Shown here: positions 4,368 to 51,744 of the stretch, piece after piece
How the letters are laid out: every line of letters starts with the position of its first letter
Numbering within the stretch: position 1 is the first letter of the stretch
From: an uncultured Candidatus Saccharibacteria bacterium
GTDB lineage: Bacteria > Patescibacteriota > Minisyncoccia > UBA6257 > 2-01-FULL-56-20
Length of the DNA stretch: 55,971 bases
Direction of reading: 5' to 3'
Assembly: GCA_964456235.1 (NCBI GenBank)
Contig: CAYWDX010000001.1
Location: forward strand, 267,210-323,180
Notes under the pieces: model-generated
The model's input: the letters and a program-made list of their open reading frames with translations, nothing else
Told to the model about the DNA's origin: nothing
Database searches by the model: none
Position numbers and translations under genes: made by a program

Positions 4368-4727
4368 ATGGATTTCGCGCTCGGCTATCTCGTGCAGCGG
4401 TTTTTCTACCGCTTTCTTGATTTTTTCCATCACTGGTATGTTGACGGGTCGCGCGCAATCGGACACCGCTTCATCGGGACGCTCGAGTCCCTCGATCGCA
4501 CGATTGCGCTCCGGGTCACCGTTCGCTATCTTTTTCAACCGCTTTACCGCGACTACACGGTCATCGGTCGCATTCTCGGATTTATTTTCCGCGTCCTTCG
4601 CATCCTGATCGGCCTCGTTCTCTACTGCGTGGTCGCGGCGGTGTACGCAGCGTTTTATGTTGGCTGGCTCGTGCTGCCCGCCCTCGCAATTTTTTATACC
4701 ATCGCCCATGCCGCCCATCGCCCCTAA
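4368..4727 (+). CDS. hypothetical small membrane protein
   Basis: 119-aa ORF with two C-terminal hydrophobic helices. Its 3' end overlaps the start of the next gene by 20 nt. Confidence 0.4.
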   Translation: MDFALGYLVQRFFYRFLDFFHHWYVDGSRAIGHRFIGTLESLDRTIALRVTVRYLFQPLYRDYTVIGRILGFIFRVLRILIGLVLYCVVAAVYAAFYVGWLVLPALAIFYTIAHAAHRP

Positions 4728-12092: not shown

Positions 12093-12402
12093 GGGGACGC
12101 ATTGGTTTTGATAGCGATGTGTCATGGGTTTGCGGGCCGATGGCAGCGGCGTAATCGCTGCATGAACTAAAACTGCCAACGAACAAGTTGCAGTTCCGAG
12201 TTTCGCTTTTGCGTAACTCGGGATCGGCTACTTCGGGTCTCTTGAGGTAACACCGGTCTTATATAAGGGGACTGGCAGGGCGCCGACGATTCTAGGCGCT
12301 CCGCAAGAACCAGAATCATTCGGCCTAACTTGATTTAGGACACGCCCGTAGACGGCCCATCGACTTCATCGCTACACAAGGGTTCGAATCCCTTCGTCTC
12401 CA
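12093..12402 (+). ncRNA. ssrA: tmRNA (SsrA), tag ANEQVAVPSFAFA
   Basis: 5' GGGGACG pairs with 3' CGTCTCC, giving the G3:U wobble. T arm is AAGGG-TTCGAAT-CCCTT with discriminator A. The internal tag frame gcc aac gaa caa gtt gca gtt ccg agt ttc gct ttt gcg taa is at 12175-12216. smpB lies 3 kb away. Confidence 0.85.
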
Positions 12403-12472
12403 CAAAACAAAGATTGATAGTGTATGATTAATATATCTAGTTCGTAACTGTTAGGCGGCATGCACCAATAAA

Positions 12473-17447: not shown

Positions 17448-17538
17448 TTAAAAATTTATTACTATTGTGAGTGGGCGATACACCGCGCACGACACGTTTT
17501 CGTTGTAAAAGCCCGTACAATCTGATAATTTGAAGGGA

Positions 17539-24551: not shown

Positions 24552-26433
24552 TTCTGCCGTTCGCTGTATTGCTGCCGAGCAGCGGCCTGATGGGGGATTC
24601 GCGCATCGCTCGAGTTCTGACCAGGATGATTTTTCTCGCGGAGGGGATTACGTCACGACATTTTTTACGGCGAATATTCTCGCCTGTTTAAACGCGGTCA
24701 AAAATCCGTGGCGCGATTTTCCTGAAGTTCAAATAATAAAATCACGGGCGGCTCTTTTTCTATTGCGCGAGAAAAGCAGTCGCTGGTCTTTTAACTATTG
24801 GTCGCGCCGTGAGCCGATGCGCAAAAGCCGACCGTACCCCGATGATTTGGATGATACCTTTGTCGCCTTGCGCGCCCTGTATGGTTATCAACCCTCGCTC
24901 GTTGACGGTTCAGTCCTCGCGAGCGTCGTTAAGATTCTTTCCGAGGCCCAAACGTCGCCGGGCGGTCCTTATGTGACGTGGCTTGCCGGGCCAGGTGCCG
25001 GCGTCAAGTGGAAGGATATCGACTTGGCGGTGAATGCGAATATTGGTTCGTTTCTCAAAAGTTTTCGAGTTCACCTGCCTCAATTGGACGACTTCATTGA
25101 GCGCAGAATTTCAGAAAATGCAGTTTGGTCGCGCTACTATCCTTCCGGAAATGTTGTCGATTATTTCGTTGCACATTATGGTCACGCGAGCGGTGGCTCC
25201 GGCTTTGCTTCCGGTACCGCTGCCGTCGCTCAAAGAATATTGCGCCGGCGTCTTCGATCTGGAGGGTGGGGGAATCCGTTGGAAACTGCGATGGCAATTT
25301 CTGCTCTTGGTGATCTGGGTTTTAGGGAACATATTAAAGAGGTAGACATCGCGGAATTCATCGAGGCCCTTCAAAGGGGTGGATGGAAGGCACATCCATT
25401 TTGTCTCGATCCGGCTCGCGACGGCGAGCGGCATTACGCAGGGTCGCCGGCGCTGACCGCAGCGCTGTGCGCCGAATCCTTATCAAAATTTTTGGATGAT
25501 GATGGGCATGCATCGGAAACAATCCTTCGAAAAATAAAAGATTTTGCTCTTGATCGCGCCGCGCATCTTCCGCGCCCGCTCCGCGGAGTTATTTGCCGCG
25601 AAATTAAATCGTTCAACAGCGTCGAAGTTGTCGCCCTGCCGTTTCGGGTCGCTCGCGCGCTGGGCGCCCTCGATTCGATCGACGACGATTTTCTTGAACG
25701 ACTTGCACTCGCCAACTTCTATGGCTGGATCGCGTATTCCCGAATTGATGACCTTTTGGATGGTGATGCTGGCATGGCAACTCTCCCGGTCGCGAATTTC
25801 TTCCTTCGAGAATTTTCTGCACAATACGAAGCTTTGGCCCGGGAAATCAATGGCCTCGACGCCTATTACTCGGCGATCATGGGCGCGATGGATAATGAAA
25901 ATTTTCTTGAACAGGCGAGCCCTCCATCACCTGAAATGCCTGGCTTTAGCCACTTCGCCCGCCGCAGCATGGGGCATGCGCTCCCGGCGATCGCTATCTG
26001 CCTGAAACTTGGCCACCATGACCAGCGCGACCTCGATTCGCTCATGGCATTCTTTCGTAACTATCTCATCGCACGGCAGCTCCATGATGATGCACGTGAT
26101 TGGCTGAAGGATTTTGGGCGCGGCAAACTGAACAGTGTCGGTGCATACCTCGCGAAGATATCGAATACCAGTTCGTACACCCCAGCCGTATTTAAAACTC
26201 TTTTTGAGGAACGTGGCGTTGATTGGGTGGCTGGCCGCATAAAATCTCACACCCACCGCGCTCGCGCAGCCTTGCGCAAAATGAAAATCATCGTCGATGC
26301 CGCTCCACTCAATGCGTTACTCGAGCGGCTTGAAGTTGCGGCTGATCGCAGCATCAAAAACCGGGATGATATCCAGAAATTTTTAAGAACCTTTGCGCCC
26401 TCGGAGGGAATCGAACCCCCATCAAGACCTTAG
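24466..26433 (+). CDS. two-domain isoprenoid-enzyme-like protein: N-terminal class II terpene-cyclase/prenyltransferase-type alpha-alpha barrel + C-terminal class I (polyprenyl-synthase-like) domain
   Basis: N-terminal half has QW-like repeats (AAEQRPDGGF, RSGGWGNP, LQRGGWKA) and PDDLDDTFVALRAL (DxDDT). C-terminal half has YSRIDDLLDGD and ARQLHDDARDW (two DDxxD motifs). The start is uncertain (ATG 24451/24466 or TTG 24511) and all candidates overlap the kinase gene. The 3' end overlaps the antisense tRNA-Arg. Confidence 0.55.
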   Translation: MEPSQLKVRQGRELYLPSRFREECAAIVDSAVRCIAAEQRPDGGFAHRSSSDQDDFSRGGDYVTTFFTANILACLNAVKNPWRDFPEVQIIKSRAALFLLREKSSRWSFNYWSRREPMRKSRPYPDDLDDTFVALRALYGYQPSLVDGSVLASVVKILSEAQTSPGGPYVTWLAGPGAGVKWKDIDLAVNANIGSFLKSFRVHLPQLDDFIERRISENAVWSRYYPSGNVVDYFVAHYGHASGGSGFASGTAAVAQRILRRRLRSGGWGNPLETAMAISALGDLGFREHIKEVDIAEFIEALQRGGWKAHPFCLDPARDGERHYAGSPALTAALCAESLSKFLDDDGHASETILRKIKDFALDRAAHLPRPLRGVICREIKSFNSVEVVALPFRVARALGALDSIDDDFLERLALANFYGWIAYSRIDDLLDGDAGMATLPVANFFLREFSAQYEALAREINGLDAYYSAIMGAMDNENFLEQASPPSPEMPGFSHFARRSMGHALPAIAICLKLGHHDQRDLDSLMAFFRNYLIARQLHDDARDWLKDFGRGKLNSVGAYLAKISNTSSYTPAVFKTLFEERGVDWVAGRIKSHTHRARAALRKMKIIVDAAPLNALLERLEVAADRSIKNRDDIQKFLRTFAPSEGIEPPSRP

Positions 26434-28983: not shown

Positions 28984-31419
28984 ATGGCGCTCGAAAAGCG
29001 AGAAATAACTAAGGAATTAAGCGAGTCATATCTCGACTACGCGATGTCGGTCATCGTCGCGCGCGCGCTGCCCGACGTGCGCGATGGATTAAAACCCGTA
29101 CACCGGCGTGTGTTGTGGGCGATGTGGGACAGCGGCCTCACCCATCTTTCGAAATTCCGAAAATCGGCGACGGTGGTGGGTGACACGATGGCGCGCTACC
29201 ACCCGCACGGCGACTCGGCGATTTATGACACGCTCGTGCGCCTCGCGCAGAATTTTTCACTGCGCTATCCGCTCGTGCAGGGACAGGGCAACTTCGGCAG
29301 CGTCGATGGCGATTCCCCGGCGGCCATGCGTTATACCGAATCTCGAATGTCGGCGATCGCCGAAGAAATGTTGCTCGACATCGAAAAAGAAACGGTTGAT
29401 TGGATTCCGAATTATGATGCGACGCGCGAAGAGCCGCTGGTGTTGCCCGCGAAGCTGCCGAATCTTCTTTTGAACGGCACGCTCGGCATCGCGGTTGGCA
29501 TGGCGACGAGCATCCCGCCGCACAATTTGAATGAAGTGGCCGACGCGATTCTGCATCTTGCTGATAACCCTGACGCGACGAGCGAGGACCTCGTTCAGTT
29601 CGTGAAAGGGCCGGATTTCCCGACCGGCGGCATAATCTACAACGCGAAAGCGATCCGCGATGTGTATGTGAGTGGACGCGGCGCGATCCTCACTCGCGCG
29701 AAAGCCGAAATCGTCGAGCAAAAAGCGGGCAAGCAGTTCGACATTATCGTGACCGAGATTCCGTACCAGGTGAACAAGGCGGAGCTCGTGAAGACGATCG
29801 CCGAGCTTGCGCAGGAAAAGAAAGTGGAGGGCATTCGCGATTTGCGCGATGAGTCTGACCGCGAGGGAATGCGCATCGTGATCGAGTTGAAGAACGACGT
29901 GCCGCCCCAAAAGGTTTTGAATTGGCTCTACGCGCACACGGACCTCGAAAAGAATTTCAATATGAATATGACGGCGCTCGTCGCGAATGACCACGGCCTG
30001 GAGCCGCGCCTGCTCGCATTAAAAGACGTGCTCGCGGAATATCTCGCGTATCGCAAGGAAGTGGTGAAGCGCCGCACGCAGTTTGATTTGCGGAAGGCGG
30101 AAGAGCGGGCGCACATTTTGGAAGGCCTCGCGAAGGCGCTCAATGCGATCGACAAAGTGATCGCTACGATCAAGAAATCGAAAGACAAAGAGGAGGCGCA
30201 CGTAAATCTCGTCAAGCTCTTTACGTTGAGCGACCTCCAGGCGACCGCAATTTTGGAAATGCGCTTGCAAACACTTGCTGCGCTTGAGCACAAAAAGATC
30301 GATGATGAATTGAAAGAGAAAAAAGTGTTGATCGAGGAGCTGAACCTTATTTTGAAGAGCCCGGCAAAAATATTAAAAATTATTAAAGACGAGGTTAAGG
30401 GGCTGAAAGAAAAATATGGCGATGCGCGCCGGACGCAGGTCGTGGCGCATGCGGTCGCCGCGATGAGTGACGAGGACATGATCAATGACGAGGATGCGAT
30501 CGTCACCGTGAGCGGCGGCGGCTACATCAAGCGGCTTCCGCCGGGTACGTTCAAGGCGCAAAAGCGCGGCGGGAAGGGGATCATTGGTTCTGAAGTGGCT
30601 GATGAAGATTTCCTCGAGCATTTCTTTAGTGCGCGGACGCACGACAACGTGCTCTTCTTTACGAACCGCGGGCGCGTGTTCCAAACCAAGGTGTACGAAA
30701 TTCCGCAGGCGACGCGCACGTCAAAAGGCCGCGCCATCCAAAATTTCCTTGAACTTCCTGCGGAAGAAACCGTGAGCGCGATCGTCAATTATTCCGCGAA
30801 GGACCCGAAACACGCCGACAAAAAATTCTTGATGATGGTGACAAAAAACGGCGTCGTCAAAAAAACGCCCCTCGCCGATTTCATGAACATCCGCCGCACG
30901 GGCATCATCGCGATCAATCTGAATAAAGGAGATCAGCTGAAGTGGGCGAAGCTCACCGGCGGCAATGACCAGGTGATTCTGGCGACGCGCCAGGGACAAT
31001 CGATCCGGTTCGAAGAAAAGCAGATCCGCCCGATGGGCCGCACCGCGGCGGGCGTGCGCGCGATTAAATTGAAAAAACAAAATGATGCGGTTGCGGGCTT
31101 TGATATAATTTCAGGAGGTGATGCGAATTTGCTCGTCGTGATGGAGAACGGGTTCGCGAAGCAGACGCCGCTCAAAGAATACAAGACGCAGCGGCGCGGC
31201 GGGTCGGGCATCAAAACTGCCGAGATCACCGCGAAGACCGGCGCGCTCACATCCGCCCATGTGATCGCGGAAGAAAAGGAAATCTTTGCGCTTTCTGCGA
31301 AGGGGCAGATGATCCGCACCGAGCTCGGCACCGTCCGCAAGACCGGCCGCGCCGCGCAGGGTGTACGCATCATGAATCTGAAGCCGGGCGACCGGCTCGC
31401 CGGGACCGTAGTCATCTAA
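28984..31419 (+). CDS. gyrA: DNA gyrase subunit A
   Basis: YAMSVIVARALPDVRDGLKPVHRRVLW, RYHPHGDSAIYDTLVRLAQNFSLRYPLVQGQGNFGS, AAMRYTE (catalytic Tyr) and C-terminal beta-pinwheel repeats. Confidence 0.97.
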   Translation: MALEKREITKELSESYLDYAMSVIVARALPDVRDGLKPVHRRVLWAMWDSGLTHLSKFRKSATVVGDTMARYHPHGDSAIYDTLVRLAQNFSLRYPLVQGQGNFGSVDGDSPAAMRYTESRMSAIAEEMLLDIEKETVDWIPNYDATREEPLVLPAKLPNLLLNGTLGIAVGMATSIPPHNLNEVADAILHLADNPDATSEDLVQFVKGPDFPTGGIIYNAKAIRDVYVSGRGAILTRAKAEIVEQKAGKQFDIIVTEIPYQVNKAELVKTIAELAQEKKVEGIRDLRDESDREGMRIVIELKNDVPPQKVLNWLYAHTDLEKNFNMNMTALVANDHGLEPRLLALKDVLAEYLAYRKEVVKRRTQFDLRKAEERAHILEGLAKALNAIDKVIATIKKSKDKEEAHVNLVKLFTLSDLQATAILEMRLQTLAALEHKKIDDELKEKKVLIEELNLILKSPAKILKIIKDEVKGLKEKYGDARRTQVVAHAVAAMSDEDMINDEDAIVTVSGGGYIKRLPPGTFKAQKRGGKGIIGSEVADEDFLEHFFSARTHDNVLFFTNRGRVFQTKVYEIPQATRTSKGRAIQNFLELPAEETVSAIVNYSAKDPKHADKKFLMMVTKNGVVKKTPLADFMNIRRTGIIAINLNKGDQLKWAKLTGGNDQVILATRQGQSIRFEEKQIRPMGRTAAGVRAIKLKKQNDAVAGFDIISGGDANLLVVMENGFAKQTPLKEYKTQRRGGSGIKTAEITAKTGALTSAHVIAEEKEIFALSAKGQMIRTELGTVRKTGRAAQGVRIMNLKPGDRLAGTVVI

Positions 31420-31420
31420 C

Positions 31421-32752
31421 ATGCCCACCAATCTTTCGAGGCAGCAGGCCATGATCCTTATCGGGGTCGTGGCGCTCATACTCATTATCGGCGCCGCCGT
31501 TTTTTTGAACCTGCGGCCGCGCCCAACGAACGGGCCGCCGGTCACATTAAATGTATGGGGGATGGAGCCGAGCGCGGCGTTTATCGCCCTCATGTCTGCG
31601 TATCCCTATGCGACGGTGAAATACACGCAGGTTGATCCTGAAAATTATGGTTCGCTCGTCCTCGGCGCGCTCGCGGCGGGAACGGGGCCGGATGTTTTTG
31701 AAATTGGGAACCGGGCGTTGCCGCGGTGGCAGTCGGTGCTCGCGCCGCTTACGATCGCGTCGTCATCGTCGAGCGGTTTCGGGCCGCTGCAAATTTCGCA
31801 ACTGTATCCCGACATCGTTTCGCAAGATTGGATCAGCGGGGCCGGCGCTGGGGCCTCCGCCGAAGCCGCCGGCGGCGCGGGACAAATCTATGGATTGCCG
31901 CTTTCGATTGACACACTCGTCATGGCGTACAACAAAGATCTCTTGAACGCGGCGAACATCGCCGTGCCGCCGACGAACTGGAATGATTTTGATGCGGACG
32001 TTGCGAAATTGCGCGCGGTGAATGGTTCGGGGCAGATCACGCAGGCGGCTGCGGCGATCGGCGGCGCAGATGACACCGTGCCGCATGCGGCCGACATCCT
32101 CGCCCTCCTGATGTTGCAGAATGGAACGCAGATGACGGATGCGAACCGATCCTCGGCGGCATTTGCGTCGCAGGTCGGCGGCGCCCCTGGTCCATCCGCC
32201 TTCAACTTTTATCTCCAGTTCGCAAATGCCGCCTCGCCCTACTATACGTGGTCATCGGCGCTCGGCCCCGCCTTCGACAGTTTCGCCGCGGGCAAAACCG
32301 CCATCATTTTTGTCTATCAATCTGACCTCGCAACGCTCAAGGCGAAGGCGCCGTTCTTGAACTACGCCCTCGCGCCGATCCCGCAGGCGAAGGGCGCCAC
32401 GGTACCCGTGAATTATGCGAATTATCGCGGTTTCGTCGCTTCAAAAGCCGGGCAGCAAGCGGCGGCATGGAACTTCATCCTCTATGAGGCGGCACAAGAC
32501 GGGGCAAAGTCCTATCTCACGCAAACCGGCCAGCCGCCGGCGCTCCGCACCGACATTGCCGCGTCGTTGAATGACGTGAATCTTTCCGTTTTTGCCTCGC
32601 AGGAACTCACGGCGAAATCCTGGTATGAAGCGGATGATAAAAAAGCGGAAGCGGCGCTCGGTACCGCCATTAAAAATGTATTAAACGGCGCGGAGACCGC
32701 GACGCGCGCCCTGACCGAAGCCGAGACCGCTGTCACGCAGCTCATGCGCTAA
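31421..32752 (+). CDS. TM-anchored extracellular solute-binding protein (ABC SBP family 1-like) without adjacent permease/ATPase genes
   Basis: N-terminal TM helix, then VTLNVWG...GPDVFEIG...IYGLPLSIDTLVMAYNKDLL...WNDF, typical of sugar-type SBPs. It starts 1 nt after the gyrA stop. Confidence 0.7.
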   Translation: MPTNLSRQQAMILIGVVALILIIGAAVFLNLRPRPTNGPPVTLNVWGMEPSAAFIALMSAYPYATVKYTQVDPENYGSLVLGALAAGTGPDVFEIGNRALPRWQSVLAPLTIASSSSSGFGPLQISQLYPDIVSQDWISGAGAGASAEAAGGAGQIYGLPLSIDTLVMAYNKDLLNAANIAVPPTNWNDFDADVAKLRAVNGSGQITQAAAAIGGADDTVPHAADILALLMLQNGTQMTDANRSSAAFASQVGGAPGPSAFNFYLQFANAASPYYTWSSALGPAFDSFAAGKTAIIFVYQSDLATLKAKAPFLNYALAPIPQAKGATVPVNYANYRGFVASKAGQQAAAWNFILYEAAQDGAKSYLTQTGQPPALRTDIAASLNDVNLSVFASQELTAKSWYEADDKKAEAALGTAIKNVLNGAETATRALTEAETAVTQLMR

Positions 32753-32768
32753 GATAATAAGGAAGGAT

Positions 32769-33248
32769 ATGAAAAATATTTCACGGATCGGTGATCGAAA
32801 ATATATTCTTCTGCCGTTGATTGTTTTTGTTCTCGCCGCGTACTGCCTCCCGCTCTTCGCGTCGGCGTCGGTTAACAATCACGCGACGAATAATGTTTGG
32901 GATCCGAGGATTTTACAGGGCCCGCTCGTCGTGTGCACCGGCGACGGCAGCGGCGGATTCCCCTGTGAAAGCTTGTGCGACTTTCTGTATCAATCCGTCC
33001 ACGTCCTCTATTTCGCCATTGCCGTAATCATTTGGATTGTGGCGCCGATCCTGATTGCCTGGAGCGGCATCTCGCTCATTATGTCACGCGGGAATCCTGA
33101 AGCACAGACCAACGCAAAAAATCGGGTGACGCGCATCGTGCTCGGCCTTCTCATCGCGCTCTCCGCGTATCTCATCATCGCGACCTTTGTGAGCGTGCTC
33201 CATATCAGCGGGGTCGGTGGGTTCGGTGCGGGCATTTGCGGGGGATAA
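32769..33248 (+). CDS. VirB2/TrbC-like (T4SS-pilin-like) two-TM secreted protein, paralog 1
   Basis: Signal peptide and Cys-rich segment (CTGDGSGGFPCESLCDF), then TM1, loop SRGNPEAQTNAKNR and TM2. Same architecture as the five paralogs downstream. Confidence 0.55.
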   Translation: MKNISRIGDRKYILLPLIVFVLAAYCLPLFASASVNNHATNNVWDPRILQGPLVVCTGDGSGGFPCESLCDFLYQSVHVLYFAIAVIIWIVAPILIAWSGISLIMSRGNPEAQTNAKNRVTRIVLGLLIALSAYLIIATFVSVLHISGVGGFGAGICGG

Positions 33249-33252
33249 TAAA

Positions 33253-34146
33253 ATGAAAGTTCGAAGCATTATTATTGCGGCGACGCTTGGAGTCATGACG
33301 AGCGCGACCGCTTTTGCGCAATCGGCACCCTCGCACATTTCTATCGACACTTCGATCCCCGGCCTCGCCCCCGCAACAAGCATCTCAGGCCTCATCCAGA
33401 ACTTCTATAGCTTTGCGTTAGTGATAGCCGGGGTCTTAGCCTTTGGCGCCATTGTGTATGGAGGGATAAAGTATGCCGTAGGGCATGGGAATCCCTCGTC
33501 TGAGAGTGAGGGCAAAAGCTGGATCGTAGGGGCCCTCTTGGGCCTCCTTCTCCTTGCCTCTGCCTATATCATCCTTACCACGATCAACCCCGAGATCACG
33601 AAGCTCTCGATCCCTCAACTCCCTTCCCTGGACGCTGCCCGGACGGGGGAGGGGTTGGGGGGAGGGGCGAGCGTGGCGAGCAGTACAGGAGGTGCTAGTA
33701 GCACTACGCCATCGGGGCCGGGCGCTCGCTGCCAAGCGCCGGCATCGGGTGGATGCTCGGTAGCCAATTTGATGGCGAACGGCGGCAGTTGCTTCGGCAA
33801 CAACATCACGCTTGCCGCCGGCGTTTGTAATGTGGAAAGCGCGAACGGATCACTCCTTCAAAGTGGTGTAGACAAGTGCGATGATGGGAGCCCGGTTTCT
33901 TTCGGCGGGTTTCAAGTCAATATCACAGCGAATTCGGTTGCTGGTCTTGATTGCAGAAGCGCTTTCTCAAACCAATATACCGGGAGCAATCGGCACTGCA
34001 CGATAACGAACCGATCGCTGTATAATCAATGTGCACAGGCGGCCCAGAATTGGGCGAACAATATTGCCGCGGCTTGTCGGATTTCGAATGGCGGGACCAA
34101 TTTCCGCCTCTGGGGCCCGCAAACCCGACAGCTCTGCGGGATTTAA
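33253..34146 (+). CDS. pilin-like N-terminal domain (paralog 2) fused to Gly/Ser linker and Cys-rich lytic-transglycosylase-like C-terminal domain
   Basis: Signal peptide MKVRSIIIAATLGVMTSATAFA, then TM1, GHGNPSSESEGKS and TM2. The linker GEGLGGGASVASSTGGASSTTPSG follows. The C-terminal domain has 10 Cys and VCNVESANGS...SFGGFQVNI (SLT-like E-S ... G-x-x-Q). Confidence 0.5.
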   Translation: MKVRSIIIAATLGVMTSATAFAQSAPSHISIDTSIPGLAPATSISGLIQNFYSFALVIAGVLAFGAIVYGGIKYAVGHGNPSSESEGKSWIVGALLGLLLLASAYIILTTINPEITKLSIPQLPSLDAARTGEGLGGGASVASSTGGASSTTPSGPGARCQAPASGGCSVANLMANGGSCFGNNITLAAGVCNVESANGSLLQSGVDKCDDGSPVSFGGFQVNITANSVAGLDCRSAFSNQYTGSNRHCTITNRSLYNQCAQAAQNWANNIAAACRISNGGTNFRLWGPQTRQLCGI

Positions 34147-34150
34147 TTCT

Positions 34151-34657
34151 ATGCGTAACTACATCATCATCGGGCTCATCGTTCTCCTCGTCGTCGGGGT
34201 CGGTGTTGTGCTGATCTTCCAGAAAAATCCGACCGCGCAGCCGCCAACTTCTGGCGGAACAGGAACGCTTCCGGTGGTGAATTCGTCGACGACCGTTTTC
34301 CCGACCGGCACCACGATGACGATCGGTACGCCGCAAGGGTCAGTCGTCGTGAATAATATTTATATCAATCCTTCGTACATCACTTCAGATAAAGAGACGG
34401 TGGTGTTTAAAGCCGCGAGTGCTTATAACCTCGTCTACAACGTGAACGACAGCACGTTTGAGATCGCGCTTCTTGCGAAACCGTTGGACGCGGCGCGGGC
34501 GGCGGCGGAAGCGGCGTTGCTATCCCGGCTGAACATTAGTAAGTCTGATGCCTGTAAATTAAATGTCTGGGAGGCGGTCCCGGTCAGCGTTGACCCCAAC
34601 TATGCCGGGCAAAATCTTGGCTTGAGCTTCTGTTCCAGCGCCTTCCCGCTCTATTAG
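34151..34657 (+). CDS. hypothetical TM-anchored extracytoplasmic protein
   Basis: ATG at 34151 (MRNYIIIGLIVLLVVGVGVVLIF) with a Thr/Gly-rich linker. No recognisable motif. Embedded in the pilin-like cluster. Confidence 0.5.
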   Translation: MRNYIIIGLIVLLVVGVGVVLIFQKNPTAQPPTSGGTGTLPVVNSSTTVFPTGTTMTIGTPQGSVVVNNIYINPSYITSDKETVVFKAASAYNLVYNVNDSTFEIALLAKPLDAARAAAEAALLSRLNISKSDACKLNVWEAVPVSVDPNYAGQNLGLSFCSSAFPLY

Positions 34658-34667
34658 TTGTGCTAGA

Positions 34668-35054
34668 ATGAAGGGAATGAAGAAGGGGCACCTCGTTTTC
34701 GTTCTAATTCTTGCGGTATTCCTCTTGGTCGGTGCACGTTTGGCGTCGGCAGATACGGGCCCGCTCGATACGGGTTCGAATCACACCGGCTTACTTCAAA
34801 ACCCGCTGGGCGGCAGTTGCAACGATCTAAGCTGCCCCATAAAGGCGGTTACCGATTTCCTTTTCACGATATCGATTCCGCTCGTCGGAATATTTATTCT
34901 GGTAGGCGGTTTTCAGATGATCACGGCGGCCGGCAACCCCGAACGGTTTTCGAAAGGGAAAAAAACAATTTTGTATGCCGTGGTTGGGTTCGTGGTGGTC
35001 ATTTTGGCGGGGAGCGTCGCCTCGCTGATCAGAAATATTTTTAGCGGATCATAA
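34668..35054 (+). CDS. VirB2/TrbC-like two-TM secreted protein, paralog 3
   Basis: Signal peptide ...LVGARLASA, then TM1, ITAAGNPERFSKGKKTILYAVVGFVVVILAG and TM2. Confidence 0.6.
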   Translation: MKGMKKGHLVFVLILAVFLLVGARLASADTGPLDTGSNHTGLLQNPLGGSCNDLSCPIKAVTDFLFTISIPLVGIFILVGGFQMITAAGNPERFSKGKKTILYAVVGFVVVILAGSVASLIRNIFSGS

Positions 35055-35060
35055 AAACGC

Positions 35061-35414
35061 ATGACAAAATTTTTTATTGCTCTCATAAATCCAACGCAGG
35101 CCCCGGCTAATGTTGGGCACGCCCCGGCCAATGTTATTGGGAGCACGCAGGACGTGCAGGATCTTTTTTGCACGGCAGTGCTTTGGATGTTTTGGGCGCT
35201 TCTGGTCACCTCGATAATCATGTTTTTAGTGGGAGGGTTTATGTATGTGACCGCCGCCGGTAACCCGGAGCGGGTCGGGAAAGCGAATAAAACCCTGCTC
35301 TACGCCGCGATCGGCGTTGCGGTCGCGATTCTCGCGCGTGGCATCCCGCTCGTCATCGGTTCATTCTTTGGCGTTGATCAGGCAAGCTTAACGGCATGCT
35401 CGGGGAATCTCTGA
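35061..35414 (+). CDS. VirB2/TrbC-like two-TM protein, paralog 4
   Basis: FCTAVLWMFWALLVTSIIMFLVGGFMYVTAAGNPERVGKANKTLLYAAIGVAVAILARGIP...TACSGNL. Confidence 0.6.
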   Translation: MTKFFIALINPTQAPANVGHAPANVIGSTQDVQDLFCTAVLWMFWALLVTSIIMFLVGGFMYVTAAGNPERVGKANKTLLYAAIGVAVAILARGIPLVIGSFFGVDQASLTACSGNL

Positions 35415-35767
35415 AAAATCTTGCGGTCGGAAGTTTTTCTAACCCGCATGGGATATTTACGCCGGCGCCCATCCAGCAGATCAGCCAGCTTCAATCGTTC
35501 GCTTGCGGCATCATCAACTGGGTTTTCTGGTTCCTTATAATCGTCTCTATAATAATGTTCTTGGTTGGTGGTTATCGATATGCTACCTCGGGTGGAAATC
35601 CAGAACGGGTGCGGGATGCGAATAAGACGCTTCTCTATGGCGTGATCGGAGTCGCGGTCGCCATCATCGCGAACAGCGTGCCGCCACTCGTCGGCAGTTT
35701 CTTTGGCGCATATGGGATCAGCGCGTGCGGCATTTTTGCAGGATTATTGGGCGGTTTTGGTATTTAA
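35396..35767 (+). CDS. VirB2/TrbC-like two-TM protein, paralog 5
   Basis: FACGIINWVFWFLIIVSIIMFLVGGYRYATSGGNPERVRDANKTLLYGVIGVAVAIIANSVP...SACGIF. The start overlaps paralog 4 by 19 nt. Confidence 0.6.
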   Translation: MLGESLKNLAVGSFSNPHGIFTPAPIQQISQLQSFACGIINWVFWFLIIVSIIMFLVGGYRYATSGGNPERVRDANKTLLYGVIGVAVAIIANSVPPLVGSFFGAYGISACGIFAGLLGGFGI

Positions 35768-35836
35768 CTTTTCCGGTTTACGTGGTATACTGGTCTGGTG
35801 TTAGGGGAAAGGTCGAAACTATGAGTTAACGTCCAA

Positions 35837-36220
35837 ATGAAGAAATTTAAGCAAATCGTCGCAGCGTGGGGGGCGCCGGCTGTGGCCCTCGTATTGCCGG
35901 CCCTCGTTTCCGCACAGGTTTCGAACCCTCCGGTGGTTGCTCCGCAACCGTACCAGAACATTAACCAGGTGACGGGTGCGTCGGGCATTCTCTGTATCGC
36001 CATCAACTGGATTTTCTGGTTCCTCATCGTCCTTACGATCATCTTTGTGTTGGTTGCAGCGTTCAAATATTTGACGGCTGCAGGCAACCCCGAGAAGGTG
36101 ACATCGGCCAGCCACACCCTGCTTTATGCAGCGATCGCAGTGGTCGTAGCAGTTCTCGCAAGAGGATTGCCCTACATCATCGCATCCTTCCTTGGTGCAA
36201 GCTTCGGCCAGGTCTGTTAA
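35837..36220 (+). CDS. VirB2/TrbC-like two-TM secreted protein, paralog 6
   Basis: Signal peptide ...LVLPALVSAQ, then LCIAINWIFWFLIVLTIIFVLVAAFKYLTAAGNPEKVTSASHTLLYAAIAVVVAVLARGLP...GQVC. Confidence 0.6.
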   Translation: MKKFKQIVAAWGAPAVALVLPALVSAQVSNPPVVAPQPYQNINQVTGASGILCIAINWIFWFLIVLTIIFVLVAAFKYLTAAGNPEKVTSASHTLLYAAIAVVVAVLARGLPYIIASFLGASFGQVC

Positions 36221-36240: not shown

Positions 36241-36272
36241 AAAGAGGGCCCGCAGGGGCCCTCTTTGGTTTT
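36241..36272 (+). terminator. rho-independent terminator ending the pilin-like gene array
   Basis: AAAGAGGGCCC-gcag-GGGCCCTCTTT followed by ggtttt. Confidence 0.75.
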
Positions 36273-36277
36273 GAAAA

Positions 36278-36309
36278 TAAAAAAACCCGCCGGCGTGGTG
36301 CCAGCGGGT
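36278..36309 (-). terminator. rho-independent terminator for the convergent minus-strand two-gene operon
   Basis: On the minus strand, ACCCGCTGGC-accac-GCCGGCGGGT is followed by ttttttt. Confidence 0.65.
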
Positions 36310-36330: not shown

Positions 36331-37245
36331 CTATGGTTTGCGCGTTGTGACGTAGAAGTGGATGAACCCACGTCCCTGCGCGCGGAAGGTTGTGGTTGGA
36401 TTGCCCTGCGCTGAGCAGCCGTTGAAGTCTCGGCCGAAGCTTTCGTAAGGCGCATGAAGCCTTTGGGCAACGGGCTTATCCTCGCACCACACTCCGACCC
36501 AGTCGCCTGGGGCGTGACTGTGGGTTATGTCGAAGGTATTCCAATCCGCCGGGAGCTTGATGGGGCCGTGGTAGCAGCCCGCCTCGAGCTCGATGTCGAC
36601 GCGATCGGTCTTCTCCGACGAAAAGTCCTGCGGTTCGTCAGTATCGCATGGCGCCGGGCCGTATCCAGCAAAATCGCTAGACGCCGGACTCGACGGGAGC
36701 ACCGTCTTGATGATCCCCTTATTCGCCAGGGACTCATCAATTCGGCGGCGCTTCTCGGGTAGGGATGCTCCCCATCCTGGGAAAACGATGCCGAGCACGA
36801 TGGCGCCCATTCCCACGACGGCGATGAGCTTGAGAACCCATCCCTTCTTGAACCAGGCGGCGATGATCGCCCAGAGGAGCATGAAGATCAAGATCTCATA
36901 AGCCAGCGAAGCCGGCGTCTGGTGTCCCAAGAGCATGCCGCGATAACCGCCATCCGCCATGAAGTCGTTCAGGGCGTCCACCTGATAAATGTGGAATGCC
37001 TGACCGAACAAGTAGCGGAGGGCGAAGAACGCGATGGTGATCGCGAAGGTGCGCCCAGCGAAGGCGAAAGTCGCCCCGATCCCCGAAGTCGTGATACCAA
37101 GCTTCCCAGCCAGGTAACGAGTGACGAGGACGAAGGCTACGGTGAAGAACGTTCGGAAGACGGGACTCCCATAGAGTGTGCCGCCCAGGATCGAAAAGCA
37201 CGCTGCCGCGAGTAATGCGTGAAACCAGTCCTTGCGGGTGTTCAT
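36331..37245 (-). CDS. hypothetical membrane protein (about six TM) with C-terminal Cys-containing soluble domain
   Basis: 304-aa ORF. Its ATG overlaps the upstream gene's stop (ATGA). Codon usage (AAG, TTC, ATC, CTC) differs from neighbouring genes. Confidence 0.6.
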   Translation of the reverse strand: MNTRKDWFHALLAAACFSILGGTLYGSPVFRTFFTVAFVLVTRYLAGKLGITTSGIGATFAFAGRTFAITIAFFALRYLFGQAFHIYQVDALNDFMADGGYRGMLLGHQTPASLAYEILIFMLLWAIIAAWFKKGWVLKLIAVVGMGAIVLGIVFPGWGASLPEKRRRIDESLANKGIIKTVLPSSPASSDFAGYGPAPCDTDEPQDFSSEKTDRVDIELEAGCYHGPIKLPADWNTFDITHSHAPGDWVGVWCEDKPVAQRLHAPYESFGRDFNGCSAQGNPTTTFRAQGRGFIHFYVTTRKP

Positions 37246-38201
37246 GATGTAGCTCTCTTTTCCTTTCTGGCCACGTAGCCTTTGAAAACTACCTTGATGA
37301 ACTCGGAGAGCATCTCGCCAACCATCTCTACCGAGAGGAGCTGGAGAAACCGGCCACCGGAGTCAGGAGCTGAAACCCTCGTGGCACCAGCTGCCGCCGG
37401 CGCACCACCCCCATCTCCTCGTCGCTCCCTTGCCTTGCTTCGCTCACGTTGAATCACCTCGATCACTTTCTTGATCCCGAGATGTACTTCGTCGTAGAAC
37501 GCGAAGAAGAAGTAGACGAAGGTGATCAGTATGAGTGAAAGCGACGCCTGCCACCAGAACCACGTTGCTTTTGGTACCGGCGGCGCCGGCGGCGGGATGG
37601 TAATCGCGGGAGCGTTGTTCCCGTAGTAGAACACGTTCCATGCCTTGACGAGAGTGGTTGTGAGCGGCGTTCCGTTTGCTGATTGGAATGTGCCGCTCCA
37701 GAGCGGTTCGCCTGGATGCCCGAACGCCATCAGGATCGTGAAGATCGTCAGGGTCGCCAGAAACTCCCATCGGAAGTTGTTGTCCGAACCCCCTGTGCCA
37801 GTGAATCTATCACAGATGCGTTCGAGGCATTCCACAAACGTTGGGCGATGCCCGACGACGACTCCTTCCGCAGGGGAAGCAAGCCAGTTAATGGCTGTCC
37901 ATGAAAAGATCCAGGTAATCATCCCGATGACCGGACGTCCTTTCTTAGAACTGCCGTTCACGCGAGGGATCACCCAAGTGATGCTCGCCCACAAGAAGAT
38001 CCAGGTGATCATCCCGATCACGAGCAGTCCGATGAATCGGAGGATGAAATATTCCTGGACGGTGTTGGTCGTGGTGGGCTCGATTGCCCCTACCGCAGAC
38101 CAAGCCAGGTAAAGGATGCCGCCCGCAACTGCGACCGCCACCGACAAAATGCCGACGATGATCGCGAAGCGAATGGCGAGAGCCGTATCACGACGTGCCA
38201 T
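37242..38201 (-). CDS. hypothetical polytopic membrane protein with an internal 30-codon duplication
   Basis: 319-aa ORF containing VIGMITWIFLWASITW and VIGMITWIFSWTAINW exactly 30 codons apart. Gly/Ala/Arg-rich C-terminal region. An AT-rich promoter region lies at 38202-38310. Confidence 0.6.
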   Translation of the reverse strand: MARRDTALAIRFAIIVGILSVAVAVAGGILYLAWSAVGAIEPTTTNTVQEYFILRFIGLLVIGMITWIFLWASITWVIPRVNGSSKKGRPVIGMITWIFSWTAINWLASPAEGVVVGHRPTFVECLERICDRFTGTGGSDNNFRWEFLATLTIFTILMAFGHPGEPLWSGTFQSANGTPLTTTLVKAWNVFYYGNNAPAITIPPPAPPVPKATWFWWQASLSLILITFVYFFFAFYDEVHLGIKKVIEVIQRERSKARERRGDGGGAPAAAGATRVSAPDSGGRFLQLLSVEMVGEMLSEFIKVVFKGYVARKEKRATS

Positions 38202-38314: not shown

Positions 38315-38395
38315 GCTGGGGTGGCGAAATGGCAAACGCACTAGCTTTAGGAGCTAGCGCCGCAAGGCTTGTGGGTTCAAGTCCCACCCCCAGCA
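38315..38395 (+). tRNA. tRNA-Leu (anticodon TAG), long variable arm
   Basis: GCTGGGG acceptor pairs with CCCCAGC. Anticodon stem CTAGC/GCTAG with loop TTTAGGA, variable arm CGCCGCAAGGCTT, T arm GTGGG-TTCAAGT-CCCAC, discriminator A. Confidence 0.85.
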
Positions 38396-38424
38396 CCGCC
38401 ATGTTCTGTTCGCCGTTCTCGTTA

Positions 38425-39315
38425 TCACTCGCGTCGTTTCCCGTGGAACGCATGGTGCACGTCGCGCAGCGCTTTGTTCGTGAGATGCGTATAGATCTGC
38501 GTCGTCGAAATATTTGAGTGGCCGAGGAGTTCCTGCACGGACCGGATGTCCGCGCCGTTCATCAAAAGATCGGTTGCAAAACTATGGCGTAACTCGTGCG
38601 CATGGACGTGTTTTGAAATGCCAGCTTCGAGCGCACGCGAGGCGACGAGGCGTTGCACCGCGCGCGGCGTCACGCGCCCGAGGACTTTCCCGCGCCGGTC
38701 GAGACTCACGAACAACGCCTCATCCGCATCGTCCCGCTTCGCCAAATATTTTTGCACGGCGTCACGCGCGGAATTGGAAATGAAAACGATCCGCAGTTTG
38801 TCGCCCTTCCCGCGCACCGTCACCTCGCCGCGCTTCACATCGATTGTGCGGTTTAAAGAGCAGAGCTCCGCGAGCCGCAGGCCGGTGGAGAAAAACACCT
38901 CGAGCGCGGCGCGGTCGCGGAGCGAGCGGAGGTCGTTGCCCTTCGGCGCCTTGAGGAGGCGCTCGAGGTCGGCATATTCGAGAACTTCGATTTGGCGGGA
39001 GGTTGTTTTCGGCAACTCGATTTTTTCTGCGGCGAGCGTTTTGATGTCGCGCTTCGCGAGATATTTCAGAAAATTACGAATCGCGATCACGTAGTAGCGC
39101 TGCGTATTCTTTTTTAGGTCCTCTCGCGCGAGCACTTTACGGAATTCTGTGACGGCGGCTTCGGTGATGTCTTTCGGGGAAGCGACGCCGGCAGCTGTAA
39201 TGAATTTTTTAAGATAGCGCTCGTAGTTTTCGCTCGTGAGGTGCGAACGATTCTTCTCTACTTCTAAGTAGTTCAAATAATCGCGGAGGAGGCGATGGAT
39301 TTCTGATGCGGGCAT
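38425..39315 (-). CDS. XerC/XerD-family tyrosine recombinase
   Basis: N-terminal SAM-like domain (YLNYLEVEKNRSHLTSENY). Catalytic residues lie in GLRLAEL, HELRHSFAT, LLGHSNISTTQIYTH. Confidence 0.88.
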   Translation of the reverse strand: MPASEIHRLLRDYLNYLEVEKNRSHLTSENYERYLKKFITAAGVASPKDITEAAVTEFRKVLAREDLKKNTQRYYVIAIRNFLKYLAKRDIKTLAAEKIELPKTTSRQIEVLEYADLERLLKAPKGNDLRSLRDRAALEVFFSTGLRLAELCSLNRTIDVKRGEVTVRGKGDKLRIVFISNSARDAVQKYLAKRDDADEALFVSLDRRGKVLGRVTPRAVQRLVASRALEAGISKHVHAHELRHSFATDLLMNGADIRSVQELLGHSNISTTQIYTHLTNKALRDVHHAFHGKRRE

Positions 39316-51572: not shown

Positions 51573-51667
51573 TGCTGGTATCCGGTGTCGCGGAGAATGG
51601 CGAGAGCTGCAGGATTTATAGATAATTGCGGCAAGAAAGTCAAACGTGCGGCTTCATCGCCGCTTCA

Positions 51668-51694
51668 TTAGCAATCTAACCAGGAGATTGACAA
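51668..51694 (+). promoter_or_regulatory. CIRCE-like inverted repeat (candidate HrcA operator) upstream of clpB
   Basis: TTAGCAATC-N9-GATTGACAA versus the CIRCE consensus TTAGCACTC-N9-GAGTGCTAA. It overlaps a TTGACA hexamer, and TATAAT lies about 30 nt downstream. Confidence 0.4.
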
Positions 51695-51744
51695 TCGAAC
51701 CTTCTCGCCCTAAACTTGAGTATAATAATAGTAAGCTTACGCAC

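Follow-up and report, generated by a model that had tools for sequence, protein, structure and literature searches.

An array of six diverged VirB2-like pilins in a Patescibacterium, probably part of a type IV secretion system encoded elsewhere on the contig

Six genes for small proteins with two transmembrane (TM) segments lie in tandem in the 55,971-nucleotide stretch of DNA analysed here (the window, meaning the whole of that stretch), and the question that they raise is what such an array could serve when no secretion machinery is visible around it. Patescibacteria are already known to carry arrays of 2–11 diverged VirB2-like pilins (Wang 2023; Quinonero-Coronel 2025), and in S. epibionticum six VirB2-like pilins are essential (PMC10633639; reviewed in PMC12857230). 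The answer that we favour, with a probability of about 0.78, is that the six ORFs encode VirB2-like pilins of a chromosomal, relaxase-less type IV secretion system (T4SS) of the kind typical of Patescibacteria, with its core genes at another place on the same contig.

Results

Six pilins with one architecture

A sequence-only reading had placed six ORFs with a common two-TM architecture at 32769–36220; the ORF list bears out all six at those coordinates, every one on the plus strand, and hydropathy shows two strongly hydrophobic segments around a G-N-P tripeptide in each product, P1 to P6. When all six frames of the window were scanned for a GNP with a hydrophobic segment on either side, exactly six sites came back, all in P1–P6, with no further GNP hairpin outside them. 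The loop had also been called an invariant GNPE, of which the first three residues stand (GNP in 6/6 in the six-way alignment) and the fourth does not quite, glutamate following in 5/6 and serine in P2; the motif moreover holds for this genome only, the pilins of relatives having mostly G-D-P-E or G-E-P-E, and among these the loop glutamate is the sole loop residue conserved at 90% or more. Pairwise identity among the six pilins is ~19–53%, and a signal-peptide-like N terminus is present in P1, P2, P3 and P6 and absent from P4 and P5. A non-pilin gene, X, not listed in the sequence-only reading, sits within the array. The features of the block and its surroundings are as follows.

28984..31419, plus strand: gyrA, first gene of the co-directional block; translation typical of GyrA
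31421..32752, plus strand: membrane-anchored family-1 extracellular solute-binding protein of sugar-ABC type, between gyrA and the pilins; N-terminal TM segment
32769..33248, plus strand: P1, divergent VirB2-like pilin, 159 aa; signal peptide, Cys-rich N-tail, TM hairpin, loop SRGNPEA
33253..34146, plus strand: P2, pilin-SLT_3 fusion, 297 aa; T4SS_pilin 37.0 bits
34151..34657, plus strand: X, bitopic protein; N-terminal TM helix, linker, ~110-aa alpha/beta domain
34668..35054, plus strand: P3, 'first after X' pilin, 128 aa; T4SS_pilin 42.9 bits, TrbC 23.8 bits (sub-threshold); Cys pair SCNDLSC in the N-tail, C-tail without Cys
35061..35414, plus strand: P4, 'middle' pilin, 117 aa; T4SS_pilin 32.1 bits; one Cys ahead of TM1 and one in the C-tail; no convincing signal peptide; 53% identical to P5
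35396..35767, plus strand: P5, 'middle' pilin, 123 aa; T4SS_pilin 33.7 bits; Cys pair; first 19 nt shared with the 3' end of P4
35837..36220, plus strand: P6, 'last' pilin, 127 aa; T4SS_pilin 28.3 bits; Cys pair; final residue Cys
36241..36273, plus strand: terminator-like hairpin 3' of the P6 stop codon; 11-bp stem AAAGAGGGCCC/GGGCCCTCTTT, 4-nt loop, then GGTTTTG
36285..36309, minus strand: strong intrinsic-terminator-like hairpin; 10 pairs, 8 of them G-C, then TTTTTTTATTT
38425-39315: Phage_integrase-family tyrosine recombinase, adjoining tRNA-Leu at 38315-38397, ~2 kb downstream of the array

The guess that these proteins resemble VirB2/TrbC pilins was borne out by Pfam profile searches, in which five of the six ORFs matched T4SS_pilin (PF18895) at 28.3–42.9 bits, above its gathering score of 26.6 bits. 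P1 scored 22.9 bits (E 8.9e-5), under that score, and its positional orthologues matched the family in 10/10 cases tested, 6/10 over the gathering score. The canonical family TrbC/VIRB2 (PF04956) recurs below threshold in four of the six copies (E 5e-5 to 3e-3), none of which reaches its gathering score (top 23.8 bits versus 27.9). A 64-sequence profile matched no solved pilin; among conjugation pili the top structural match by Foldseek, 8dfu, fell short of significance (E 5, target TM 0.61). An AF2 model of P2 presents residues 44–76 and 81–111 as a helix pair (pLDDT 78–89). The six ORFs are real and encode diverged paralogues of the VirB2-like T4SS pilin (Pfam T4SS_pilin).

A conserved block with orthologous positions

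The relatives of the source genome are Paceibacteria-like, and across that clade the block keeps a fixed order: gyrA, an orphan sugar-binding protein, P1, P2, X and then three to five small pilins, varying by genome. About 22–25 of 26 related loci retain it. A GyrA homologue of ~810 aa lies upstream of the array at the same place in 22 related loci, and the solute-binding protein is found in 22 of 27 array loci; a profile of 19 of its orthologues matches the PDB sugar-binding proteins 4qrz (E 2.4e-20) and 8art (5e-18). No ABC permease or ATPase lies beside it, and its synteny with the pilins suggests that it may be a functional part of their system. A single nucleotide separates the gyrA stop from the next gene, and the block from gyrA to P6 is probably one operon. 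Its transcription unit probably ends, judging by the sequence, at the hairpin at 36241..36273, which a pattern scan for terminators missed because its T-run is short and which was read from the sequence directly. The minus-strand hairpin that follows would serve convergent membrane-protein genes at 36331-38201.

Protein X recurs in 25 of 27 array loci, with P2 on one side and the small pilins on the other. Its residues C135 and C161 are invariant. At E ≤ 0.001 its homologues comprise 2,319 cluster representatives. It matches no Pfam family, and its alpha/beta domain (AF2 pLDDT 82–96) has no significant Foldseek or PDB match.

Does each pilin keep its own place, or are the copies exchangeable? 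Cross-genome best matches fall at the same array position for 80% of P1 proteins, 92% of the 'first after X' class and 89% of the 'last' class, positional orthology running at 80–92% over the P1, P2, first and last classes; 89 of 93 such pilins (20/20, 23/23, 24/25, 22/25) score higher across genomes than against any paralogue of their own genome. In the middle class a same-genome paralogue is closer than the orthologue in 35 of 45, which points to lineage-specific duplication. A Cys pair flanking the hairpin marks 44/45 middle and last pilins (18/18 last) and 0/19 of the first type. Four pilin positions are ancient orthogroups; the middle copies turn over.

These patterns bear on a rival account in which the pilins are interchangeable: redundant alternatives for the major VirB2 subunit, deployed one at a time or mixed, that vary the surface for different host strains or for evasion of host defences, a role put forward for the VirB2 paralogues of Bartonella and Anaplasma. 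Quinonero-Coronel et al. have suggested such pilus variation for Patescibacteria arrays (PMC12102498), and the low identity between copies, the changing number of small pilins after X and the duplications among middle copies all suit it. We nevertheless consider it unlikely: positional matching and higher cross-genome scores oppose it, as does the fixity of the class features, SLT_3 being confined to P2 and the Cys pair to middle and last pilins. From positional orthology together with these features it follows that at least four of the slots are old and cannot be interchanged, leaving variation, at most, to the middle copies.

A lysozyme-like domain on a pilin

P2 consists of a signal peptide, a pilin hairpin (~aa 42–111), a low-complexity linker and a C-terminal SLT_3/lysozyme-like domain (~aa 155–297) with ten cysteines and conserved E-S and G-x-F-Q-V-N motifs. 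In the window P2 itself SLT_3 falls under the Pfam threshold (E 0.34); 11 of 18 full-length P2 homologues match it (best 2e-8), and E195, S196, G218, Q221 and N223 are invariant in the family alignment. The AF2 model of the domain is well defined (pLDDT 85–96), and Foldseek returned no lysozyme or transglycosylase structure for it; the Pfam matches in homologues and the motifs are what suggest a lysozyme-like domain. In other Patescibacteria clades VirB4 has a pilin-SLT_3 fusion, or a larger protein with SLT_3, at a distance of 0.1–5 kb.

A protein that joins TM segments to a lysozyme-like domain, with a Phage_integrase-family gene beside a tRNA downstream, might also be expected of a holin/endolysin cassette or of debris from a conjugative element. 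Such a remnant is strongly disfavoured. Genes for an S1 protein, an MBL-fold protein, gyrA, the sugar-binding protein, the array, Xer, NYN and PNPase are syntenic in up to 22 related genomes, and the recombinase is a chromosomal Xer because it lies within that conserved gene order in 14 loci. Base composition is flat across the region; the window holds no relaxase, phage structural or coupling-protein gene, and its sole FtsK-like ATPase is a genuine FtsK by its alpha, gamma and 4TM domains.

The secretion machinery very probably lies elsewhere on the contig

The sequence-only reading was right that no secretion machinery is nearby: profile searches found no VirB4, coupling protein or relaxase in the 56-kb window, and T4SS genes are absent from up to 33 kb upstream and up to 20 kb downstream of the array and from the 10 kb around each of 26 related arrays. 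Its further step, to an uncharacterised assembly lacking machinery, does not hold. The VirB4 P0087 and a seventh pilin, P0017, both map to a 323,180-bp contig, and 323,180 bp is also the length of the contig to which the window proteins P0001 and P0193 map; arrays of this kind are, besides, already published. P0087, 90% identical to the VirB4 of one relative, also lies on a contig of run SRR12313479, which yielded array contig L001 as well. On this contig are genes for PrgI, a TraC-like protein and VirB4, and in tetranucleotide composition it correlates with the window at 0.964, more closely than any relative. From the equal 323,180-bp size, the same sequencing run and the similar composition we infer that VirB4 is on the array's contig, and the T4SS core (a VirB6-like polytopic protein, PrgI/VirB3, TrsD, VirB4 and the seventh, solitary pilin) is very probably encoded elsewhere on it, next to dnaA. 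The relatives have such a locus on the same contigs as their arrays, 45–91 kb away, in which PrgI (41.6 bits), a TraC_F_IV-like protein, VirB4 (P-loop_TraG 83.9 bits) and a solitary T4SS_pilin are followed by jag, yidC, rnpA, dnaA and dnaN. Nor is this an ordinary conjugation locus, the case held out by the sequence-only reading should a conjugative system adjoin the window: the T4SS is tens of kb away, and Patescibacteria T4SSs are generally without a relaxase (PMC12102498).

Because T4SS genes are absent near this array and the 26 related ones, the coupling of array and T4SS in function is something we infer, and a membrane complex independent of the T4SS has to be weighed, in which the two-TM proteins, X and the orphan sugar-binding protein would form an uptake or sensing assembly and share with VirB2 only their ancestry. 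The clade's arrays are never within 10 kb of VirB4 and always stand beside the membrane-anchored sugar-binding protein that has no permease or ATPase; the T4SS locus has a pilin of its own, and similarity to canonical VirB2 is sub-threshold. The gyrA/sugar-binding neighbourhood may, however, be plain synteny with no functional meaning, and the closest paralogue of the P2 pilin domain is P0017 (65% identical), encoded in the T4SS locus. P2-type fusions and SLT_3 domains, moreover, adjoin VirB4 in other Patescibacteria clades, and the equivalent array of Saccharibacteria is inside an essential T4SS cluster (PMC10633639). We regard a separate complex as improbable.

Discussion

Taking the array as part of the T4SS, the pilins would be inserted into the cytoplasmic membrane as N-out/C-out helical hairpins, P1, P2, P3 and P6 via Sec with leader cleavage and P4 and P5 without a leader, so placed that the G-N-P-E loop would face the cytoplasm. 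VirB4-powered machinery could then extract the subunits into a polymer, either a pilus or a short conduit that crosses the cell wall and points to the host cell, in which the paralogues may divide the labour. The putative wall-degrading domain of P2, if active as an enzyme, would supply a VirB1-type function from its pilin anchor, and the Cys pair of middle and last pilins might tie N- to C-tails outside the membrane. The pilin family and the SLT_3 domain are linked to VirB4 in other genomes.

What is new here is the conserved gyrA–sugar-binding block, the ancient orthogroups, the SLT_3 domain of P2 and the Cys pair of middle and last pilins; the published descriptions of Patescibacteria pilin arrays consulted here mention no pilin-SLT_3 fusion, in-array X, positional orthogroups or Cys pair.

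Comparison with known systems

The closest likeness is to the arrays of other Patescibacteria: the SEML1_0006-0019 cluster of S. epibionticum ML1, that of N. lyticus TM7x and the 441 catalogued arrays of 2–11 pilins in 383 assemblies (PMC12102498). The defining Pfam family, PF18895, is the same; the window has six tandem pilins of divergent sequence and identical architecture with one non-pilin gene inside, at identities of ~19–53% against 25% on average and 54% at most in the published arrays; and here too a Patescibacterium bears a chromosomal, dnaA-proximal, FATA-like T4SS. In the published survey pilins were near virB4 in only 1,135 of 1,948 assemblies (PMC12102498), and a T4SS pilus has yet to be observed in Patescibacteria (PMC12857230). 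Whereas the S. epibionticum ML1 array lies inside its T4SS cluster, in the source genome and ~25 Paceibacteria-like relatives it forms a separate block 45–91 kb off, fixed between gyrA plus the sugar-binding protein and Xer, while the T4SS locus keeps an extra solitary pilin.

With the canonical pilins VirB2 (Agrobacterium T-pilin), TrbC (RP4) and TraA (F) the window proteins share small size, a leader, two hydrophobic helices and a short polar or charged loop, in a genome with VirB4, VirB3 and VirB6-like machinery. T-pilin and TrbC are cyclised head-to-tail, and a disulfide joining N- and C-tails would be comparable to that closure. The system differs in its monoderm host, in having six or seven paralogues rather than one, in the lack of a relaxase or coupling protein near the array, and in its two leaderless copies and one copy with an enzyme-like domain.

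VirB1-type lytic transglycosylases (SLT PF01464; SLT_3 PF18896) offer a parallel to the C-terminal domain of P2, whose family matches SLT_3, some members also matching SLT weakly over the catalytic stretch. That family keeps an invariant Glu-Ser and then G-L-[FW]-Q-[IV]-N, which we take to resemble the E-S and GLMQ(IN) motifs of family-1 lytic transglycosylases, VirB1 included. Unlike a soluble periplasmic enzyme, the P2 domain is attached to a pilin hairpin; it is very Cys-rich and in the window copy has G for L in the GLFQ motif. Domains homologous to that of P2 lie directly 3' of virB4 in other Patescibacteria, in agreement with the essential 'lysozyme homologue' reported downstream of virB4 in S. 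epibionticum ML1 (PMC12102498).

The virB2 paralogues of Bartonella, Anaplasma and Rickettsiales give a precedent for arrays (PMC12102498), being tandem-amplified, diverged and sometimes far from the virB4 cluster. Their bearers, however, are diderm intracellular pathogens of eukaryotes, with antigenic variation as the presumed role of the copies, whereas most positions of the window array are ancient orthogroups with class-specific features.

Results

A reading of the sequence alone had described an array of six small two-TM paralogues in this region, and six open reading frames are indeed found there, all on the plus strand and each with two strongly hydrophobic segments around Gly-Asn-Pro (GNP).

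Pilin array and associated genes (window positions, strand, description; for pilins, position of the G-x-P-E loop codons, with Asn in all six paralogues)
31421-32752, +, sugar-binding protein, between gyrA and P1
32769-33248, +, P1, pilin; loop codons 33090
33253-34146, +, P2, pilin with a C-terminal domain; loop codons 33487
34151-34657, +, X, non-pilin gene separating P2 from P3
34668-35054, +, P3, pilin of the "first" class (first after X); loop codons 34932
35061-35414, +, P4, "middle" pilin; loop codons 35259
35396-35767, +, P5, "middle" pilin; loop codons 35594
35837-36220, +, P6, "last" pilin; loop codons 36083
35061-36220, +, stretch with the Cys pair (alignment A3)

Hydropathy peaks on either side of the GNP loop outline a helical hairpin in all six pilins, and a six-frame scan of the window finds GNP between hydrophobic segments only at the six array sites, none of the five further GNP tripeptides having hydrophobic flanks. 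The alignment retains GNP in every copy, while the Glu of the supposedly invariant GNPE is present in five and replaced by Ser in P2. Signal-peptide-like N-termini are found in P1, P2, P3 and P6 and not in P4 or P5; for P2 the ATG at 33253 is the best start, since a good signal peptide (MKVRSIIIAATLGVMTSATAFA|QS) results from it. From gyrA through the sugar-binding protein, P1, P2 and X to P3-P6 the successive gaps are 1, 16, 4, 4, 10, 6, -19 and 69 nt, and the P6 stop codon is followed by a hairpin with a short T-tract and then by a strong convergent terminator.

Profile searches support the guess that these proteins belong to the T4SS-pilin family. Against Pfam T4SS_pilin (PF18895; gathering threshold 26.6 bits), P2, P3, P4, P5 and P6 score 37.0, 42.9, 32.1, 33.7 and 28.3 bits, respectively; P1 lies just under the threshold (22.9 bits, E 8.9e-5), and its positional orthologues match the same family in 10/10 cases, 6/10 of them above threshold. 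None of the six reaches the gathering threshold of Pfam TrbC/VirB2 (PF04956; 27.9 bits), the best score being 23.8 bits for P3, followed by 19.7 for P1, 18.2 for P5 and 18.1 for P2, with no match at all for P4 and P6. A sequence profile of 64 pilins retrieved no solved pilin (VirB2, TraA or TrbC) from the PDB at E <= 10. In P2 the AF2 model shows a helical hairpin (helices 44-76 and 81-111). Foldseek with this model gave a single pilus match, to the Aeropyrum pernix conjugation pilus 8dfu, which falls short of significance (E 5, probability 0.63, TM 0.61 on target), as short hairpins usually do. Given the PF18895 scores, as against the sub-threshold PF04956 scores and the lack of a PDB pilin, we consider T4SS_pilin membership established and homology to canonical VirB2 remote.

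The same sequence-only reading held that no secretion machinery lies nearby, and within the 56-kb window this is correct: VirB4, coupling protein and relaxase were not found, no large ORF carries a relaxase or VirD4/TcpA-type domain, and the sole FtsK-family ATPase is a full FtsK. The window is housekeeping chromosome, encoding an RNase J-like protein, UDG, two ClpB, PolX, ArgRS, IleRS, TyrRS/TrpRS, S1 protein, GyrA, Xer, PNPase, RecA, FtsK and an IscS-like protein. Scanning an alignment of P2 homologues against GTDB species representatives yielded 80 related loci, all from MAGs (best identity 62%, the window genome itself not being among the representatives) and nearly all labelled Paceibacterota, Parcubacteria, Minisyncoccia, Moraniibacteriota, Doudnabacteria or Saccharibacteria, with three Bdellovibrionales; the window resembles these MAGs in its small-genome housekeeping content and synteny. 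The array is present in 26 of the related loci, with VirB4 within 10 kb of it in 0/26, and several of the same genomes have a second locus 45-91 kb away on the same contig.

Gene order in array loci and second loci
Array locus, upstream: S1 protein (-), MBL-fold protein, gyrA, 430-460-aa sugar-binding protein
Array locus, middle: P1-type pilin, P2-type pilin, X, three to five small pilins
Array locus, downstream: minus-strand membrane proteins, Xer, NYN, PNPase
Second locus, start: PKD-domain protein, 800-aa polytopic protein, PrgI (41.6 bits), TraC_F_IV-like protein
Second locus, continued: VirB4 (P-loop_TraG 83.9 bits), two unknown proteins, solitary T4SS_pilin
Second locus, end: jag, yidC, rnpA, dnaA, dnaN

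With the window counted, X is kept in 25/27 array loci and gyrA and the sugar-binding protein in 22/27 each, a conserved synteny that argues against the array being the remnant of a mobile element or lysis cassette, a reading we reject. In clades less closely related, 1.0-4.7 kb separate the P2-type fusion from VirB4. The alternative of an ordinary conjugation locus finds no support either, as neither relaxase nor coupling protein was seen in the window, in the relatives' 20-kb T4SS loci or in L083.

The genome that contains the window appears to have such a second locus of its own. P2 and X are recorded (as P0001 and P0193) on a 323,180-bp contig, and the same figure is given for each of two further proteins: P0017, a solitary pilin paralogue that is encoded outside the window and shares 65% identity with P2 across 165 aligned N-terminal residues, and P0087, a VirB4 90% identical to that of a relative. 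P0087 is also found on a 15.8-kb contig of run SRR12313479, in the order three unannotated proteins, PrgI, TraC-like protein, VirB4, and the same run gave an 8.5-kb contig that encodes exact copies of the array proteins. The tetranucleotide profile of the 15.8-kb contig correlates with that of the window at r = 0.964, compared with 0.82-0.93 for relatives' loci. Together, the equal 323,180-bp contigs, the shared run and the matching composition support a strong inference that the T4SS is in the same genome, with its VirB4 probably on the same contig, and they count against the earlier picture of an array without machinery. The best-supported explanation is that the array encodes pilin subunits of a Patescibacteria T4SS, set apart from the ATPase locus.

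Positional orthology was compared across all array loci. The best cross-genome hit falls at the same array position for 80% of P1, 92% of P2, 92% of first-after-X and 89% of last pilins, and in these four classes the cross-genome score nearly always exceeds that of any same-genome paralogue. Middle pilins find their best hit in another middle pilin in 62% of cases and in the last class in 36%, a same-genome paralogue being closer in 35/45. Judged by these class-wise best-hit positions and paralogue scores, the array is composed of four old orthogroups together with middle copies that descend from the last type and can expand in number. Most of its copies are old orthogroups and not recent variants, and the rival idea that the copies are interchangeable variants fits only the middle ones.

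A second distinction among the classes lies in a pair of cysteines, one a few residues before TM1 and one in the short C-tail, which occurs in 26/27 middle and 18/18 last pilins (44/45) and in 0/19 of those first after X. In a hairpin of N-out/C-out topology both residues would face outwards, which makes a tail-to-tail disulfide in middle and last pilins plausible. The loop consensus across the family is T-A-x-G-[D/N/E]-P-E-K, and Asn in the loop of all six copies is peculiar to the window genome; orthologues of P3-P6 elsewhere mostly have Asp or Glu, the P2 class Asn throughout. The loop residue (N, D or E) is common to the first and last pilins of one genome in 12/17 genomes; this agreement could come from concerted evolution within genomes or from shared genome ancestry, and we record it simply as an observation.

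Beyond its hairpin, P2 differs from a simple pilin. All 18 full-length homologues have in common the pilin hairpin, a Gly/Ser-rich linker and a C-domain of ~140 aa in which eight Cys and the motifs E-S and G-(L)-x-Q-x-N are invariant (E195, S196, G218, Q221 and N223), while L219, >= 90% conserved among homologues, is Gly in the window copy. At E <= 0.01, 11/18 match Pfam SLT_3 (PF18896), the best at 2e-8; P2 of the window itself, with 11.8 bits (E 0.34), stays below the gathering threshold of 27 bits. The AF2 model of the C-domain has pLDDT 85-96. Foldseek against the PDB and BFVD returned no lysozyme or transglycosylase fold for it, nor did its sequence profile match any PDB entry, so that these searches gave no structural proof of a lysozyme fold. 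In MAGs labelled Doudnabacteria and Saccharibacteria, proteins of 636-1,082 aa whose genes start ~60-170 nt after VirB4 also end in the P2-type SLT_3 domain, which scores 26.3-33.9 bits in L036, L040, L043, L069 and L074 (4/5 above 27, with 28.0-33.9 bits), with a weak SLT co-hit beside SLT_3 in L074. One array pilin bears a putative lysozyme-like domain that elsewhere adjoins VirB4. The VirB4-adjacent proteins of these five loci are low-complexity membrane proteins. The solitary pilin of T4SS loci (P0017; also L045, L048, L077 and others) has the hairpin in common with P2, the 65% stretch passing through it into the linker, and carries a different, short Cys-rich C-terminal extension in place of SLT_3.

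X consists of a TM anchor and an alpha/beta domain with two invariant Cys, and its family is large: 2,319 cluster representatives match at E <= 0.001, 1,729 at 1e-10. Pfam searches on 21 members gave no family, and ten longer proteins containing the domain have no informative partner domain. Identification of X as VirB5 or VirB8 was rejected: despite a confident AF2 domain, the best Foldseek match (E 0.08) was to unrelated folds, and the PDB profile returned only weak Ig-like noise. By PDB profile (4qrz, E 2.4e-20) the membrane-anchored sugar-binding protein is a family-1 sugar-ABC binding protein, and it lies between gyrA and the array in 22 loci, with no ABC permease or ATPase partner adjoining it. 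This placement might suggest a T4SS-independent complex of pilins and sugar-binding protein, a reading disfavoured by the linkage of the T4SS_pilin family to VirB4 elsewhere (adjacent in 30/80 related loci).

Two minus-strand membrane proteins downstream of the array (36331-37245 and 37242-38201) were considered as VirB6-like parts and not counted in the system, because they have no Pfam match, are poorly conserved (kept in just 6 and 2 array loci, window included) and are transcribed convergently. The 660-aa ORF at 24451-26433, considered as a hidden ATPase, matches no P-loop family and has no TM segment. These and other features of the window are listed below; of the last entry but two, we note that the recombinase is most likely the chromosomal Xer, since it lies in a gene order conserved in 14 loci, window included.

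Other features of the window
4657-7236, +, ClpB-family AAA+ protein, one of two in 56 kb; no Clp_N match, weak matches over the first AAA module
12093-12405, +, tmRNA gene (Rfam 104 bits; tag peptide ANEQVAVPSFAFA)
12473-15187, +, predicted surface protein of 904 aa; four to five repeats of FN3 / purple-acid-phosphatase-N type, two peptidoglycan-binding domains (PG_binding_1)
17530-21162, +, IleRS, 1,210 aa; a histidine-phosphatase domain (His_Phos_1, residues 515-675) splits the catalytic tRNA-synt_1 match into two halves (E 2.5e-34)
23115-24551, 478-aa protein whose sole domain is a C-terminal HATPase_c
24451-26433, +, 660-aa ORF without Pfam match, overlapping the end of the preceding protein
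38315-39315, tRNA-Leu(tag) adjoining a tyrosine recombinase; resembles an integration site
37242-38201, -, membrane protein with near-repeat VIGMITWIFLW... / VIGMITWIFSW... ~30 aa apart, mirrored in DNA by a 90-nt-spaced repeat at ~37911-38017
51646-54396, +, the second ClpB-family AAA+ protein

Discussion

How a detached array might serve a T4SS can be sketched from known VirB2-type pilus biogenesis and the anatomy of the array. All six pilins would enter the membrane in hairpin form, four of them losing a leader by cleavage; VirB4, VirB3 and VirB6-like machinery would then extract and polymerise them, the P2 domain could cut the wall locally, and a disulfide may stabilise the subunits.

A bolder extension, to which we assign roughly one chance in four, is that in this Paceibacteria-like clade the array works as a kit of set parts for a heteromeric VirB2-type filament, not as a stock of spare pilins. 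Such a kit would comprise four ancient, non-interchangeable classes (P1, P2, a Cys-free first and a disulfide-stapled last pilin), to which expandable stapled middle copies and the widespread bitopic factor X would be added. In P2 a pilin anchor would hold an SLT_3 domain that cuts the wall, the N-tail to C-tail bridge of the last pilin would mimic, by analogy, the head-to-tail cyclisation of T-pilin and TrbC, and the orphan sugar-binding protein would possibly act as a host-glycan sensor or adhesin. Because all solved conjugative pili are, to our knowledge, built from one pilin, a heteromeric filament, if true, would be the first of its kind.

Patescibacteria, which live on other cells, account for much of bacterial diversity, and a large non-Saccharibacteria clade of them keeps its pilin genes in a fixed block away from the ATPase locus. 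Annotation pipelines should not infer an "orphan" pilus from a window without virB4. The conserved Cys pair and the unannotated partner X, with its > 2,300 cluster representatives, are obvious experimental targets.

No Patescibacterial T4SS pilus has been visualised so far, and its role as a conduit is speculation (PMC12857230). T4SS and pilin array are essential in the single species tested by genetics (PMC10633639, PMC11665869), and a requirement of the array for epibiotic growth has been shown in S. epibionticum only. In that species an essential lysozyme homologue is encoded downstream of virB4, which fits the VirB4-adjacent SLT_3 proteins described here.

Quinonero-Coronel et al. 2025 searched 3,035 genomes with PF18895 and related profiles and found, in 383 assemblies, 441 arrays with 2-11 pilin genes each, arranged in tandem or with one non-pilin gene between, with a mean within-array identity of 25% and a maximum of 54%; pilins lay near virB4 in just 1,135/1,948 assemblies, and Patescibacteria T4SS were often beside dnaA, with relaxases rare (PMC12102498). 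The window likewise has six pilin genes and one intervening gene, X, with gaps of -19 to 69 nt, and its divergence matches: the other pilins are 19-28% identical to P1 in global alignment, and the highest local identity within the array is 53%, for P4 and P5. In view of these published arrays and those of Wang et al., what had been taken for an uncharacterised assembly is an instance of a described phenomenon (PMC12102498); the original observation is confirmed, its interpretation is partly supported, and the locus adds no new kind of system. What it adds to the known arrays are some clade-specific traits of organisation that deserve mention: a block that is detached and linked to gyrA, positional orthogroups, a pilin-SLT_3 fusion, a Cys pair and X.
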